44,021 nucleotides of DNA from a bacterium (GTDB lineage: Bacteria > SZUA-182 > DTGQ01 > JAFGSM01), in assembly GCA_049472355.1 (NCBI GenBank), contig JBLIRP010000022.1, positions 1 through 44,021 on the forward strand, written 5' to 3'. The position numbers and the translations under genes were made by a program. Each line of letters opens with the position of its first letter. Within the stretch, counting starts at the first letter, position 1. A model generated the notes under the pieces. That model searched no databases, was not told where the DNA came from, and saw only the letters and a list, made by a program, of their open reading frames with translations. Shown piece by piece: positions 19,640 to 30,667 of this stretch.

Positions 19640-20782
19640 ATGCAAAAAAAACTGCTCCTGTCGCCAGGTCCCACACCCGTTCCGTCCGAGGCCCTGCTTG
19701 CCATGGCACAGCCGATCGTCCACCACCGGACTCCGGAATTCACCGAAATACTCAATCAGGTCCAGGAGGGATTGAAATATCTGTTCCAGACGGAGCAGGA
19801 TGTCCTCGTCATCGCCGGCTCGGGCACTGCTGCGATGGAGGCCGCGGTCTCCAACATCCTCTCCCCGGGAGACACAGCCATCTGTATTCGGGGGGGGAAA
19901 TTCGGCGAGCGCTGGGCGGAGCTGTGCACCGCCTATGGCGTCAACACGATCAACATCGACGTGGAGTGGGGAAAGGCCCTTGATCCCAAGGTCCTGGAGG
20001 ACCACCTTTCCAAAAACACGGATGTCAAGGCCGTGTACACAACCATGAGCGAGACCTCCACCGGGGTAAGATTCGACATCGAGGCATTCGCCAGGATCGT
20101 TTCCCGGCACCCGGGGACCGTCCTGGTGGTGGATGCCATCACCGCGGTCGGTGTCATGGATGTGCCCATGGACAGATGGGGTGTCGACGTCCTGGTGTGC
20201 GGTTCCCAGAAGGCATTGATGCTCCCTCCGGGACTCGCCTTCATCAGCCTCAGTGAAAAGGCATGGAAGGCTGCCGAATCCTCCACCTGCCCCAAATACT
20301 ACCTCAATCTCAAAAAGGAGAAGAAGAACCTGGCCAAGGGGCAGACCGCATATACCCCTGCCGTATCCCTGATCGTGGGGCTGAATGAGACCCTCACCAT
20401 GATCAGGGAAGAGGGGCTCACCAATGTGTTCAAGCGCCACGCCACCCTGGCCGCGGCAACCCGTGCCGCATGCCAGGCCCTCGGCCTGAAGCTCCTGGCA
20501 AAGGACTCCCCTTCCGATGCGGTCACCGCGGTACTCGCCCCCGAAGGCACCGATGCCTCCCAGATCATCAAAAAGATGAAGGGGAAGTATGGGATGATCA
20601 TCGCCGGAGGCCAGGAGCACCTCAAGGGGAAGATCTTCCGCATCGCCCATCTGGGCTACTTTGACAAGAGCGACATATTCTCGGCCATCGCCCACCTGGA
20701 GCTCTCCCTGAAGGAGCTGGGAATCCCGGCAAAACCGGGAGCAGGCATCGCTGCTGCGGAACAGGTGTTTCTGGCCGAATAG
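19640..20782 (+). CDS. Class V PLP aminotransferase (alanine-glyoxylate/serine-pyruvate type, probable phosphoserine aminotransferase)
   Basis: PGPT, HHRT.EF, SGT.AME, ETSTG, VDA, GSQKALMLPPG and FRIAHLG. Directly upstream of serA. Confidence 0.92.
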   Translation: MQKKLLLSPGPTPVPSEALLAMAQPIVHHRTPEFTEILNQVQEGLKYLFQTEQDVLVIAGSGTAAMEAAVSNILSPGDTAICIRGGKFGERWAELCTAYGVNTINIDVEWGKALDPKVLEDHLSKNTDVKAVYTTMSETSTGVRFDIEAFARIVSRHPGTVLVVDAITAVGVMDVPMDRWGVDVLVCGSQKALMLPPGLAFISLSEKAWKAAESSTCPKYYLNLKKEKKNLAKGQTAYTPAVSLIVGLNETLTMIREEGLTNVFKRHATLAAATRAACQALGLKLLAKDSPSDAVTAVLAPEGTDASQIIKKMKGKYGMIIAGGQEHLKGKIFRIAHLGYFDKSDIFSAIAHLELSLKELGIPAKPGAGIAAAEQVFLAE

Positions 20783-20808
20783 ATTGATAAAAACAGGAGG
20801 AACGAGCA

Positions 20809-22392
20809 ATGAAGGTCCTTGTCAGTGACAAGCTTTCGCCCAAGGGCGTAAAGGTGTTCGAGGAAACGGAGGGCATCCAGGTGGATGTCAAAACCGGCAT
20901 GACCCCTGAGGAGTTGATCGCCTGCATTCCGGAATACGATGCGCTGGTGGTGCGCAGCGCCACCAAGGTCACCCCCCAGGTGATCGAGGCGGCAAAAAAC
21001 CTGAAGGTGATCGGCCGGGCAGGAAGCGGGGTGGACAATATCGACCTGCCGGCTGCCACAAAACATGGGATTGTGGTTATGAACACGCCCGGCGGGAACA
21101 CCATCACCACCGCAGAGCATGCCGTCTCCATGCTCCTTGCCCTGTGCCGTCATATACCACAGGCGGACGCCTCCATGAAGCAGAAGAAATGGGAGAAGAA
21201 GAAGTTCATGGGCACCGAATACTTCGGCAAGACCCTCGGTGTCCTCGGGCTCGGCAAGATCGGCACCGAGGTGGCCAAACGGGCACGGGGATTGATGATG
21301 AAGGTGATCGCTTACGACCCCTTTATCTCCGCCGATGCCGCCCAGAGGCTGGAGGTGGAGCTGGTCGGCATGGAGGACCTCTTCAGGCGCGCCGATTTCA
21401 TTACCGTCCATACCCCGAAGAGCCCGGAGACCATGAACCTCATCAATGCCAAGACCATTGCCTTGATGAAGGACGGGGTGAAGATCGTCAACTGCGCACG
21501 CGGGGGTATTGTGAACGAGCAGGATCTGGCTGACGCCGTCAAGAAGGGAAAGGTCTCAGGGGCCGCTCTGGACGTCTTTTCCCAGGAGCCACCCGCTGAG
21601 GACAACCCCCTCCTCGGCCTCCCCCAGGTCATCATGACCCCCCACCTCGGGGCATCAACGGAAGAGGCCCAGGACAAGGTTGCGGTGGACATCGCCTATC
21701 AGATCGTTGACATGCTCAAGAACAGCACCGTGTGCAATGCGGTGAACGCCCCCTGCGTGGCCAAGGAGGTCCTTGCAAACATCAAGCCCTATATCACCCT
21801 CGCGGAGAGGATGGGAAGCATCGCGTGCCAGATCGCCGAGGGACGGATGAACGAGTTCCTGGTAAGCTACAGCGGGGAGGTGCTCAACAATGACCTGGCA
21901 CCGATCACCATGGCGGCGATCAAGGGGCTTTTGAGCCCCATTCTCCACGAGGAGGTGAATGATGTCAACGCCATGCTCGTTGCCAAGGACAGGGGGATAA
22001 AGGTCGATGAGATAAAGGAGAGCGTCACCGGGGCGTATTCGAGTCTCGTATCCATCACGCTCGTCACCGACAAGGGTAAGGCCTCCATCGCCGGCACCCT
22101 TTTCAACCGCATCGAGCCACGGATCGTGGAGATGAACGGCTTCGACATCGAGATCGTGCCCGCCGAGAATATGCTCGTCTTTTCAAACATCGACAAGCCG
22201 GGATTGATCGGGAGCATCGGCATGACCCTGGGGGAGTACCATGTCAACATTGCAGGGATGCAGTTCGGCAGGGCGAAACCGGGCGGCGATGCAGTATCCG
22301 TCCTGAGCGTGGACAGCCGGGTGAGCGAGGAGTTGCTCACCGTACTGGGCAAACTCCCCAACGTGGTGAGCGTCAAATCGGTGCGGCTCTAA
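20809..22392 (+). CDS. serA: D-3-phosphoglycerate dehydrogenase
   Basis: VRSATKV, RAGSGVDNID, GLGKIG, NCARGG, TPHLGAST.EAQ, plus ASB and ACT domains. Confidence 0.97.
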   Translation: MKVLVSDKLSPKGVKVFEETEGIQVDVKTGMTPEELIACIPEYDALVVRSATKVTPQVIEAAKNLKVIGRAGSGVDNIDLPAATKHGIVVMNTPGGNTITTAEHAVSMLLALCRHIPQADASMKQKKWEKKKFMGTEYFGKTLGVLGLGKIGTEVAKRARGLMMKVIAYDPFISADAAQRLEVELVGMEDLFRRADFITVHTPKSPETMNLINAKTIALMKDGVKIVNCARGGIVNEQDLADAVKKGKVSGAALDVFSQEPPAEDNPLLGLPQVIMTPHLGASTEEAQDKVAVDIAYQIVDMLKNSTVCNAVNAPCVAKEVLANIKPYITLAERMGSIACQIAEGRMNEFLVSYSGEVLNNDLAPITMAAIKGLLSPILHEEVNDVNAMLVAKDRGIKVDEIKESVTGAYSSLVSITLVTDKGKASIAGTLFNRIEPRIVEMNGFDIEIVPAENMLVFSNIDKPGLIGSIGMTLGEYHVNIAGMQFGRAKPGGDAVSVLSVDSRVSEELLTVLGKLPNVVSVKSVRL

Positions 22393-25639: not shown

Positions 25640-26404
25640 TCAGATGAGGGTCAGGCTGAACACCCCTCTATCCACGACAGGGCCGCCGAATCCTATCGAT
25701 TCCGAATACGTTCCGGTCATGGTGGTGGGGGAGGTAAGGGTACAGCTCATGACAACGGTGAATCCCCCGGCCCCGATAACCCCCTGCAATTCGAAAAGGG
25801 GCGTGCCGGTCAGCGCCCCCTGCACATCAAAGAGGGTGTTCGCAAAACGGCTCCCCTCCAGGATACAGGTGCCGCTGATGGTATTGAGGGTAGGATTTTC
25901 AACGAGGGTCATCGTCATGGTGCCGGAATTAAACAGGATGATAAAGGCAACGAAGGTGCTCTGCCATGTGCCGATCCAGGTCCCCGCCTGTGCCGCCATG
26001 CGCATGGGCAGAGGCGCGGCGAGGGACAAAGAGGCCTGGCTCAGCGACACCGGGGACAGCATGGGTAGCGAGAAGGGGACCTGTGGCAGCGTTAACGACG
26101 TGAGCCCGGAGAAGCCTCCTGGAAAAGAGAACGGCAGGCTGAATCGTGCAGCAAGCGGATTGAACGAGGAATACAGGGAACCGGTATTGAAGCCGTAGCC
26201 AAAGGGATTGAACCGGAACAGCGGAGAACCCGGTCCCCACGATTGATACCCCCATGAAGTCAGCGGTGCAAGCGTGGAGACGAGCGGATTAAAGGTGATG
26301 CCGGAAAGCTGGGCCGCCCCCGGAGACGGGCTGAGGACGGTGAGGAACACGAGGACTGAAAAAATGATACAAACGATGAGAATTTCTTGAACTTTCTTAT
26401 ACAT
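25640..26404 (-). CDS. Secreted protein with F/P/L/S-rich region and C-terminal putative beta-barrel domain
   Basis: GAGGTGA RBS. Signal peptide ending GAA|Q. Low-complexity linker, then a domain starting AGTWIGTWQS. Confidence 0.8.
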   Translation of the reverse strand: MYKKVQEILIVCIIFSVLVFLTVLSPSPGAAQLSGITFNPLVSTLAPLTSWGYQSWGPGSPLFRFNPFGYGFNTGSLYSSFNPLAARFSLPFSFPGGFSGLTSLTLPQVPFSLPMLSPVSLSQASLSLAAPLPMRMAAQAGTWIGTWQSTFVAFIILFNSGTMTMTLVENPTLNTISGTCILEGSRFANTLFDVQGALTGTPLFELQGVIGAGGFTVVMSCTLTSPTTMTGTYSESIGFGGPVVDRGVFSLTLI

Positions 26405-27139: not shown

Positions 27140-29662
27140 TCATCTCAGAAGATACCCTATCAGGAGGGAATAGAGGATCATCAAGACGGCGTGACCAAGC
27201 CAAAAAAACCAACGGGGACGGGTCTCGGGATTGAATTTATCCTGAACGATTCGAAATATGGCGTAGCAGGAAAAGAGAATCCCAAGGCACAGGGTGATCG
27301 CCTGTAATACATGCAGCCCTGAAACCACCCGGACCAGATCCCTGCCCTTTACAAGAATCGCATATCCCATATCCTTGACCCCCGGGATATACCTCAACTG
27401 ATACGCGATATGGGCTGCGAGAGCAAGGGGCACATATCCGTAAGCGGTCTTCCAGAATCCTTCGGATACCGTCACTCCGCCGGGAAACGACATGAGGGAT
27501 ATGGCCATCATAAGACCGATCATGGCGGCAGGGACCAGCACAAAGCCCAGCGTGGTAAGCAGTAGTGAATCGAACGGCCTGATTACCGGCACCAATACCC
27601 CCATGAGCGCGCAAACAAGGATCGCCATTCCCGGCCTCACATGGTTCGATGACCATATCTCCCATCCGGGTGCCCTCAGATTCAAAGACACGGACTGGTG
27701 AGGGCACGTCCTGATACACTTCAAGCAGAGCTTGCAGGTCTGATTGTTGTCCACGAACATCAGGTGCTGGAACATGGGGCACCCTGATGTTTCCGCGGTG
27801 CCGTGATAGCACTCATCGGTGGTGCACTGGTGGGCGCAGATGTCCGGATTCGATCGCACCTCCACGATAGAGGTCATTGCAAATACCCCGATCAGGTTCC
27901 CCATGGGGCACACATACCTGCACCAGGTATCCCGGGGGAACAGGATGCTGAAGGAAATCTCCAGGCCCAGTATCGAGAGGAGGAGCATGCCGGTATACAG
28001 GGGGCGTGAACGCATCCCTGTTGCCTCTTCCACCCACACGATAAACAAAAACAATATGGTAGTGACCGCAAAGTCATAGTCCTTGAAAAATTTCGGGAAC
28101 TGTTTGTCAAGATGCACCCTTCGCTGGACGGCGTTCCCCATCGTTGCATACGCACAGAAGGAGCACCATGTCCTGCCGATCCAGAAGGCCGCCGCGCACA
28201 ACCATGGCCACCAGATCCACCATACCAGGATGGTCCCCCAGTTTCTCGACGGGTCCCGGGGCCCGAAGAAGCAGGAGGCCATGATAAAGAAGAAAAAGGC
28301 AACGGCGATCCACCGGAAAAGCCCCGGATAGATCCCCTTCCGGATCATGGTTTCAAACGCCTTGATCCTTCCCAGATTAAACCAGGTGTGTGCCCGTCCG
28401 GCAGGGGGACCGATGAAGAGCTGTTCGGAATGGATCGTATCGGCAGCGGCCAGCACCACCCCCCGTTCGATGATCTCCTCCAGTTCGTGGATATTTCCCC
28501 TGCGAAAGTCATACCCCAGGAGTTGTTCCCGTGCGCGGGGGCTGAGTTTTCCAACCTCCTTGTTGTATCTGCGCGAATGCCGCTCCATGAAGTGTACGGC
28601 AAGCTCCAGGATATCCTGCTTCCGTTCCCTGAGGGGAGGAAGATGGATAACCTTCCTGGAAAGCAGGTCATAGAGGGGGGCAAAGAATGTCCCCTCATTC
28701 ATCCGAAGGCGCAGATCGCTATGGGAGGTGAAGATCATCCTGACCGGGGATCGTCCAGGGGAATGCTTCCCGTGATTCGAATCCCCCGCGCAGCTTAGGG
28801 CGGAGTCCCCGTTCAGAAAACATGTCAATCGCTCCTGTGCAACGGGGGTAAGGGCGTCCACATTTTTTATAAGGAGCGTGCCGCCGCGGGCAAGGCCGAA
28901 AGGGCTGAAACGCGCCCCAGGCACCGGATCGGCCGATGGTGGTCCCTCCCGAAACTGCTCCCCCCATTCCTCGTCGGAGATCTCCGAGGCATCCAGGATG
29001 ATGAAAGGCCCGTTCCGTGCCGGTCCCCTGCAGTGAATGATCTCGGCCACAAGCTCCTTTCCCACTCCGAATTCACCTACCACAAGTACAGGGTGGGAAT
29101 CCGCAGCAAGCTCGGGAATGCGCTGCCAGATCACGTTCATCGGCGGGGTGCTTCCCACCAGAAAAGGGGCCTCCTCCTCGATCATCTTCATTATTCTCCG
29201 CAGGTACTCCTGTTTCCTCGTGATCTCGTATAATGCGGAGGCGATCGTGGCCATCCTTTCCGTGGTTTTCCTGAACAGTCGTTCACGAAGGGGGGCGGAA
29301 ACGGCAAGCGTGGTGAACAGGCCGGCGCCGGGCACAACAACGACATCGGAGTCCTCAATGGCCTGAAACCCCATTTGACTCGGCATTCCGGTCATACAGG
29401 AGAGATCGCCGAAATAATCCCCCGGCCGAACCGTCACCAGTGGCGTTGCACACTGCTGATTGCAGTAAATGCCCTCCACCGCACCTCTCACCAGAATGTA
29501 GAGTCCGGGGGCGGTGTCTCCCTGTCCAATGATCTCGCCACCGGCGGGAAACATCTCCATCCTGGCATCTCCTGCCATCTGCTCAAGGGTGTGCAGGGGA
29601 AGGTCGCGGAAGGGATCGATGGTCCCGAGGAAGGAGAGAATGTGATTGTAATCCGAATTCAT
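27140..29662 (-). CDS. Fusion of a cNMP-binding domain, a degenerate sigma54-activator-type AAA+ domain and a polytopic membrane 4Fe-4S (NapH/MauN-like) domain
   Basis: PGDYFGD (cNMP). GEFGVGKE, LPPLRERKQDI and GNIHELEEIIER (AAA+). WWIWWP, GRTWCSFC, WCRYVCPMG, GCPMF and CKLCLKCIRTCP with several TM helices. Confidence 0.88.
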   Translation of the reverse strand: MNSDYNHILSFLGTIDPFRDLPLHTLEQMAGDARMEMFPAGGEIIGQGDTAPGLYILVRGAVEGIYCNQQCATPLVTVRPGDYFGDLSCMTGMPSQMGFQAIEDSDVVVVPGAGLFTTLAVSAPLRERLFRKTTERMATIASALYEITRKQEYLRRIMKMIEEEAPFLVGSTPPMNVIWQRIPELAADSHPVLVVGEFGVGKELVAEIIHCRGPARNGPFIILDASEISDEEWGEQFREGPPSADPVPGARFSPFGLARGGTLLIKNVDALTPVAQERLTCFLNGDSALSCAGDSNHGKHSPGRSPVRMIFTSHSDLRLRMNEGTFFAPLYDLLSRKVIHLPPLRERKQDILELAVHFMERHSRRYNKEVGKLSPRAREQLLGYDFRRGNIHELEEIIERGVVLAAADTIHSEQLFIGPPAGRAHTWFNLGRIKAFETMIRKGIYPGLFRWIAVAFFFFIMASCFFGPRDPSRNWGTILVWWIWWPWLCAAAFWIGRTWCSFCAYATMGNAVQRRVHLDKQFPKFFKDYDFAVTTILFLFIVWVEEATGMRSRPLYTGMLLLSILGLEISFSILFPRDTWCRYVCPMGNLIGVFAMTSIVEVRSNPDICAHQCTTDECYHGTAETSGCPMFQHLMFVDNNQTCKLCLKCIRTCPHQSVSLNLRAPGWEIWSSNHVRPGMAILVCALMGVLVPVIRPFDSLLLTTLGFVLVPAAMIGLMMAISLMSFPGGVTVSEGFWKTAYGYVPLALAAHIAYQLRYIPGVKDMGYAILVKGRDLVRVVSGLHVLQAITLCLGILFSCYAIFRIVQDKFNPETRPRWFFWLGHAVLMILYSLLIGYLLR

Positions 29663-29695: not shown

Positions 29696-29724
29696 TTGAC
29701 AACATAATGCATTTCGTTTACAAT
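29696..29724 (+). promoter_or_regulatory. Sigma70 promoter of the DUF1573 selenoprotein gene
   Basis: TTGACA-17 nt-TACAAT, about 55 nt upstream of ATG 29780. Confidence 0.65.
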
Positions 29725-29779
29725 TTTCAATTAACATGGTTAATAGTTTTCTTTATAATTGAGAATGTTAGGAGATGAA

Positions 29780-30667
29780 ATGAAAGGCCGTTTTTTGCAA
29801 TCCCTCATTGTATTCGGGGTCTTCCTCTGCCTTTTTTTCTGGGCCAACGAAGGCATTTGGGCCGCACCGCAGATACGGTTTGATCACACCACCTTCGATT
29901 TCGGCAAGGTGATTCAGGGCCAAAAGGTCACCCATGTCTTCGAATTCCAAAACATCGGCGATGAGACCCTGAGCATCAAAAATGTGAGGGCCGGGTGAGG
30001 CTGCACCGCAGTCAATCTCTCGGAGAGAGATTTGGCCCCCAAGGCGACGGGACAGATCAAGGCCACCCTGCATACGACCGGCAGGAAGGGGACGTTAAAA
30101 AAGACCATCTCCGTGGAAACAGCGGATCCCAATCAGCCCGTGATAAGGCTTTCACTGGTGGCCACGGTGGATGTCGAGCTCGACCCCCAACCAATGACCG
30201 TCTATTTTAAGGATATGCAACGAGGAGAGCAAAAAAACCAAAAGGTATCGGTCAGGAATACCGCTTCGCATCCACTTCGGATAACCGCGATAAATACCTA
30301 TGATACGCTGATCAAGGTCGATCTTGTGAACCGTTCGTTGCACCTGCCAGTGGAGTTACAACCGGATGAAGCCCTGGAACTGCTGGTCAACCTTCACTAT
30401 CAATCAAGAGGTTCCAGGTTCTCAAAACAGGTCGAGATAAATTACGCAGGGGGGAAGGCAGACGCCGCCTTTTTGAGGGTCTACGCAACATTGAAGCCCG
30501 AACCGAAGACACCGCCTCAACAAGATGCACCGTCGGATGCCCCCCCTTCATCGGGGAGGGTCATTCAAGACGCACCCTCGCAATCCCCTGATCAGGGCCA
30601 AATACAGCAGAAAGGGCCCGAATCGCATGAAGATGCACCAGCACGGCCCGCGCTCCCGCAGGAGTGA
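29780..30667 (+). CDS. Secreted DUF1573 / Ig-like domain selenoprotein (Sec at TGA 29996-29998), 295 aa
   Basis: ORFs 29759..29998 and 30032..30667 are in one frame separated only by TGA. Read-through gives FDFGKV..GQKVTHVFEFQNIGDETLSIKNVRAG-U-GCTAVNLSERDLAPKATGQIKATL, matching the DUF1573 pattern (F.F.N.G...L.I..V..SCGCT......PG..G.I). A SECIS-like hairpin follows. Confidence 0.85.
30011..30036 (+). promoter_or_regulatory. Bacterial SECIS-like hairpin
   Basis: GUC-AAUCUCUC-[GGA]-GAGAGAUU-(U bulge)-GGC. The G-led apical loop lies 23 nt after the UGA. Confidence 0.75.

Follow-up and report, generated by a model that had tools for sequence, protein, structure and literature searches.

An in-frame UGA, predicted to encode selenocysteine, in an exported DUF1573-domain protein of the OS_HP2 family

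The window analysed here, i.e., the whole stretch of 44,021 nucleotides, contains a gene that, judged by its sequence, is a member of the known DUF1573/OS_HP2 selenoprotein family as the literature defines it. The UGA at codon 73 of this gene is almost certainly read as selenocysteine (Sec, U) in an exported protein. The best explanation, to which we give somewhat more than an even chance, is an exported 295-aa protein in which Sec73-Gly-Cys75 would form a redox exchange site on an Ig-like domain.

A single reading frame with one internal UGA

Positions 29780–30667 of the forward strand form a single frame of 295 codons, in which the sole internal TGA (codon 73) is flanked as A-G-U-G-C-T. Once this codon is read as U, a protein of 295 aa results, confirming the original prediction that two open reading frames were one frame split by a TGA. 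The mechanical listing of open reading frames gives just the downstream piece (211 aa, with a TTG start). The expected splitting by gene callers was also seen, as protein databases carry this branch as fragments: seven of nine matches in a protein collection are 182–233 aa long, both of the two inspected among these seven start after the TGA, and the remaining two of the nine are full-length Cys forms. The parts of the gene are as follows.

29780–30667, + strand: full gene, 295 aa with U73; the terminal TGA ends the frame
29780–29863, + strand: probable signal peptide, residues 1–28; cleavage after IWA placed by eye
29864–30175, + strand: Ig-like domain 1 (DUF1573/PF07610) with U73-G-C75; Pfam E 9e-32 and structure model
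29996–29998, + strand: putative Sec codon 73, in-frame TGA; in 13 of 13 genomes of the order, Cys in homologues, covering contigs in agreement
30002–30004, + strand: Cys75, the UxC partner; only Cys of the mature chain
30011–30036, + strand: predicted bacterial SECIS; conserved 7-bp core at 30015–30031, GGA loop at 30022–30024, 23 nt past the UGA
30176–30499, + strand: Ig-like domain 2 (ASH/Cep192-like, no Cys); weak Pfam matches under the cut-off, all-beta in the model
30500–30664, + strand: Pro/Gln-rich low-complexity tail of 55 aa, by composition, taken to be disordered; divergent among relatives

The TGA had been placed at the first Cys of the CGC motif of DUF1573 domains, and U73 indeed aligns with the Cys of CGC or CSC in eight Cys homologues (alignment A3). 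Both the U/C positions of the UxC/CxC motif were invariant in all 21 aligned sequences. Two Cys codons come after the terminal TGA, which raised the question of a second Sec site there; we discarded this reading, as the fold (-4.6 kcal/mol) is not SECIS-like and the sequence after this TGA differs in the relative G001.

The UGA is conserved across the order

An orthologue search spanning 61 genomes found a TGA-bearing orthologue in all 12 other genomes of the order. The TGA thus occupies the same column in 13 of 13 genomes, which are kin and not independent samples, at protein identities down to 37–43%, and is never replaced by TAA or TAG. Covering contigs from three DNA runs of three studies, one of which may be the source sample, showed no letter but TGA. 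An assembly error (TGC or TGT in place of TGA) and a private nonsense mutation had both been named beforehand as possible refutations. Since the contigs of the three studies agree and all 13 genomes share the TGA (and the hairpin described below), both are excluded in practice.

A genuine stop at codon 73 would make the locus a pseudogene, an assembly artefact or two small genes. The absence of selA and selC from the host assembly, databases that carry only the downstream piece, and a copy with a premature TAG later in the gene than the TGA column (G003) could all be taken in that sense. Set against these are the exclusive use of TGA in the 13 genomes, the frozen codons of the hairpin and the identical letters in three studies; moreover, a stop would halve what the structure model presents as a single beta-sandwich, and all 123 matches of the pattern scan reported below (120 loci) run on in frame as DUF1573-like sequence. 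We regard this reading as extremely improbable, and it is already largely refuted.

Two copies carry a premature TAG within the gene (G003, L015; G018, L030), for which decay and assembly error are both possible. A Cys (CGC) paralogue is kept beside the Sec copy in four kin (G011, G008, G006 and G009; L174, L177, L178 and L179), and none of the same kind was found in the host assembly (G000).

Upstream signals and predicted export

Three elements precede the start codon.

29696–29724, + strand: candidate sigma-70-type promoter, TTGACA-17-TACAAT, 11 of 12 matches
29731–29759, + strand: second candidate sigma-70-type promoter, TTAACA-17-TATAAT, 11 of 12 matches
29770–29774, + strand: ribosome-binding site AGGAG, 5 nt ahead of the ATG, by sequence

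The promoter proposed for the gene in the original prediction is present as the first of these sites, and the second, equally good one had been overlooked; a TTGACA-like element is also visible upstream of the gene in several relatives. The ribosome-binding site was located as predicted. In an RNA run, contigs cover the 3′ half of the gene and none of the host strain spans the TGA; such contigs cannot show transcription.

The proposed signal peptide stands as probable, on the basis that the N-terminus is the only hydrophobic segment of the protein by Kyte–Doolittle hydropathy (15-residue mean of 2.5 starting at residue 8, and no more than 1.3 beyond residue 30). The N-termini of relatives resemble that of the 295-aa protein. 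The protein would in all likelihood be exported by way of this signal peptide.

A putative SECIS hairpin downstream of the UGA

The minimum free energy (MFE) folds contain the hairpin of the original prediction, i.e., an 8-bp stem with a G-led GGA loop 23 nt after the UGA and a 3-bp GUC/GGC-type extension across a bulged U. The bacterial SECIS consensus, in the accessible part of its source, has a loop of 3–9 nt, an upper stem of 4–16 bp, a G in the first two loop positions, a spacing of 16–37 nt and an MFE of at most -7.5 (PMC13188914); the present hairpin falls within it (loop GGA, 8 bp plus 3, 23 nt, -11.3 kcal/mol). Its folding energy against dinucleotide shuffles is not above chance (z from -0.8 to -1.8) and does not single the hairpin out, and was rejected as proof of it. 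A loose genome-wide filter for host selenoproteins, combining SECIS and motif, was likewise rejected (307 of 10,306 read-through candidates passed).

Conservation was more telling on the order level. All 13 genomes preserve the 7-bp core, in which one U-A pair is changed to U-G, and the outer eighth pair (A-U) is broken in eight of them. Where a residue is shared by at least 11 of the 13 genomes, four of five codons inside the hairpin are monomorphic versus none of 30 outside: the hairpin codons for N, L, S and D are each a single codon in all 13 genomes, and that for R in 12. No covarying pairs were found in the stem among these genomes; the stem is frozen instead. The expectation of a conserved hairpin with synonymous covariation held for conservation. 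In G013, from another order, a hairpin with the GGA loop lies 29 nt from the UGA, and two of its pairs differ by compensatory changes. These changes rest on one sequence, and 40 of 500 shuffles score as high.

When genes were compared with their synonymous re-encodings, 11 of 13 from kin gave z below -1.64, as did 52 of 121 distant Sec genes (of 123, two being too short) and 1 of 23 Cys genes. The class labelled 'SecKin' in this test numbers 15, i.e., the 13 kin plus two non-kin genes (z = -0.08 and -2.89). Only 39 of the 121 distant Sec genes have a G at position one or two of the MFE loop, so the loop-G test is not sensitive family-wide. In the host selD gene, too, a GGA loop occurs, on an 11-bp stem that lies 20 nt beyond the TGA of that gene.

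Selenocysteine machinery of the host

The host assembly (87.5% complete) encodes SelB (295 bits) and SelD (382 bits), both over their cut-offs, and selD is itself TGA-bearing; selA was not found in it, nor was a tRNA-Sec (selC) over the cut-off. The search for sel genes proposed beforehand succeeded for selB and selD and missed selA and selC, whose syntenic positions lie at contig ends; a genome without the Sec genes, the third refutation named beforehand, was thus not borne out. In the relative G001, the flanks of selA map to two host contigs, C144 at its start and C83 at its end, which truncates selB, and those of selC to the ends of C38 and C39. Because the flanks in this nearest relative match contig ends, we place host selA and selC, in all probability, in assembly gaps. 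Counting marker genes alone would then misjudge the host as lacking both. Three 'SeC' calls made by ARAGORN at lowered stringency in the host were rejected, their sequences being unlike the selC of kin.

All five closest kin have selA, as do G013 and 11 of the 12 other genomes of the order; in the remaining one, which is 76% complete, it was not found. In G014–G019 selA was not found (0 of 6), and the DUF1573 matches there are without the TGA. selC scored over the tRNA-Sec cut-off in three of the five closest kin.

Reading of the UGA as Cys or another residue, or a reassignment of TGA in the lineage, finds nothing specific to this gene in its favour. Against it stand the use of TGA as terminator of this and other genes in the window, the kin selC genes over the cut-off and the tracking of selA by the TGA form across the phylum; this reading is highly improbable as well. 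All readings without Sec, taken together, are very unlikely. In the proposed mechanism, SelB with Sec-tRNA would bind the GGA-loop hairpin 23 nt downstream and UGA73 would be read as Sec, which we hold to be very probable on strong comparative grounds; the SelB step itself is established for bacterial Sec insertion.

Membership and breadth of the family

The PF07610 search suggested in the original prediction returned a match to DUF1573 over residues 32–126 (E 9e-32; 109.4 bits vs a cut-off of 26.1). The implied novelty of the Sec family did not hold up: it has been catalogued since 2007 as OS_HP2/DUF1573, motif UGC. In the accessible portions of the papers concerned, OS_HP2 was introduced in 2007 as a new selenoprotein family with two sequences (PMC1976440), was linked to pfam07610 and the motif UxC, its counts being 2 Sec and 354 Cys sequences (PMC2398784), and appears in selenoprotein tables as 'DUF1573 domain-containing protein', motif UGC (PMC9312934; PMC13188914). 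The points of this definition are found here, i.e., a PF07610 domain, a TGA at the first position of UGC, and TGA in at least two different sequences. No functional study or experiment on the DUF1573/PF07610 selenoprotein family was found in the portions of the literature searched. The present gene may already have an entry in BSepDB (PMC13326102).

The present gene resembles OS_HP2 in its Pfam domain, Sec at UGC, a downstream SECIS-like stem-loop and the existence of Cys homologues. It differs in belonging to another lineage branch, in its near-frozen SECIS with a GGA/GGC loop, and in that four of its kin have a C-terminal extension (DsbA-like in the two scanned). The best NCBIfam match is NF041425 (OS_HP2_seleno; E 1.6e-25, 95 of 98 model positions), with a score of 89.3 bits (C for U) that falls below the 100-bit cut-off. 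None of 20 genomes of the phylum passes this cut-off, whereas all four Desulfobacterales-type controls do (116–149 bits); two other distant Sec members also fail.

A pattern scan of species genomes yielded at least 122 further UGC-type DUF1573 stretches across many phyla, with record titles including Desulfobacterales, Nitrospirota, Acidobacteriota, Planctomycetota, Zixiibacteriota, Fibrobacterota, Spirochaetota and Bacteroidales. In a quick tree, the kin Sec genes stand beside Cys paralogues of their own phylum (SH-aLRT 88, not starred) and away from the Desulfobacterales copies. This tree is of low resolution (103 columns, 158 rows, quick search only, Sec rows selected by pattern) and for these reasons cannot count the origins of Sec. 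UGC genes also occur in tandem, three in a row in one locus (L102:1687-4477) and two in another (L108:3495-5299), and in L032:1354-3594 a Cys copy is directly followed by a Sec copy.

Predicted fold

Residues 29–240 were modelled with a pLDDT of 95 as two all-beta domains, in which U73 lies in a three-residue turn between two strands and C75 opens the next strand. The best structural matches are ASH/Hydin-type scaffold proteins of cilia and PDB 2QSV, an uncharacterised protein from P. gingivalis, with Foldseek E values of 1e-11 to 1e-9; 2QSV also gave a profile match over domain 1 (E 0.008), and a single-sequence search of the PDB gave no match. The all-beta model and its Ig-like matches place the protein outside the thioredoxin fold. 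The ASH/Hydin/PapD-like Ig domains and 2QSV thus share the fold of the present protein and are themselves scaffold or uncharacterised proteins.

The N-terminal domain of DsbD is likewise Ig-like and periplasmic; its Cys pair is redox-active, acts together with thioredoxin folds and has a spacing that differs from CxC. We found no sequence match to DsbD and no DsbD chain among the structural matches listed, and the likeness to UxC-DUF1573 is a functional analogy only.

These scaffold matches bear on whether a Se-S bond at the UxC motif could be structural or assist folding, in a Sec-containing protein that acts as an Ig-like adaptor or as a scaffold at the surface. The protein passes the choice-of-anchor D cut-off (50.9 vs 45 bits), and the domain is found joined to unrelated modules, e.g., sulfatase and HEAT, both of which fit such a role. 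A CxC ring is strained, however, and a purely structural task is rare for Sec; in the present protein the motif is confined to the first Ig domain, and Sec is kept across many phyla. We consider a purely structural role unlikely.

Proposed function and genomic context

An envelope selenol/thiol redox site on the Ig-like domain is the most likely function. The UxC pair, on its strand-to-strand turn, would cycle between selenol/thiol and selenenylsulfide and would exchange with partners of the thioredoxin-fold or heme type, for which the Ig domains would offer a place to dock; the two steps jointly seem slightly favoured. Fusions of the domain are consistent with this. Four same-order Sec orthologues are 506–513 aa long with a C-terminal extension, and the two scanned match DsbA/thioredoxin families; two Cys homologues (L194 and L196) are fused to cytochrome c by Pfam. 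Non-redox fusions of the DUF1573 domain (sulfatase-TPR, HEAT) exist as well, and these, like the scaffold-type fold, speak against a redox role.

The long orthologues (G011, L017:1444-2961; G008, G007 and G009, L020, L021 and L022) additionally contain a CxxxxC segment, and their DsbA-like domain at the C-terminus bears a single-Cys SYCPF motif; the copy of G010 (L023) stops at 377 aa, ahead of the DsbA-like domain. The Cys-form DUF1573-cytochrome c loci (L194 and L196, on which Pfam was run, also L195 and L198) belong to selA-negative members of the phylum. Looking for longer fusions turned up three matches and no new architecture, which is weak evidence. Two further domain assignments were dropped: a CcdA-like membrane domain in two Cys homologues was unconfirmed by Pfam and NCBIfam, with only a weak glutaredoxin-like match (E 0.005), and a CcmH-like segment in the long kin forms had no Pfam match.

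Genes for ArsR/ArsP, thioredoxin, DsbD-TM, rhodanese or MauE surround the UGC gene in at least 5 of 76 distant Sec loci (11 loci were inspected in detail). Across 91 loci there is no universal operon, and most distant loci show lineage-specific housekeeping synteny. In the window the neighbours are unrelated, i.e., a divergent sigma-54-type regulator and a glycogen synthase, the latter also downstream in six kin. The divergent gene (27140–29662, - strand) encodes an 840-aa protein with a cNMP-binding domain, a sigma-54 activator and a membrane 4Fe-4S region; beyond it lies a 254-aa open reading frame (25640–26404, - strand) whose N-terminus is hydrophobic and whose middle is of low complexity, and which has no Pfam match. 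An aminotransferase-serA-like pair, named by inspection, lies about 7 kb upstream of the gene (19640–22392), and in six Nitrospirota loci the UGC gene directly precedes similar aminotransferase-serA-like genes, which may be coincidence.

The arsenic-type clusters raise the possibility that the inserted Sec and its Cys partner bind soft metals or metalloids (Cu, Hg, As), the protein being an exported carrier or sensor and not a redox catalyst. CxC motifs bind soft metals, and three distant Sec loci lie in ArsR/ArsP clusters, one of them beside a cation-efflux protein. The same clusters are, however, rich in thioredoxin and DsbD-TM genes, no metal-handling gene flanks the present copy, and its mature chain has no further Cys; a metal site appears rather improbable to us.

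If the redox reading is extended to the whole family, UxC-DUF1573 might be a widespread exported redox module on an ASH-type Ig fold that carries electrons within the envelope in the manner of the DsbD N-terminal domain, with proteins of the thioredoxin fold or cytochrome c as docking partners. In this order, DsbA-like fusions would then keep the native redox pair together in a single chain, and the family would extend far beyond the NCBIfam model, with several switches between Cys and Sec. This wider picture, drawn by analogy, is conceivable but doubtful.

Significance

The gene is a sound but ordinary find, its selenoprotein family having been on published lists since 2007. The present branch extends a known, predicted-only family, and the new points, i.e., the NF041425 miss and the database splitting, are minor. 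Its practical value is an annotation fix, because the branch is split in protein databases and scores under the NCBIfam cut-off. As a test case it is clean, with a SECIS frozen across the order, the same loop on the host selD and Cys paralogues in four kin as controls. The DsbA-like fusions suggest a first biochemical assay for the predicted-only DUF1573 selenoprotein family.
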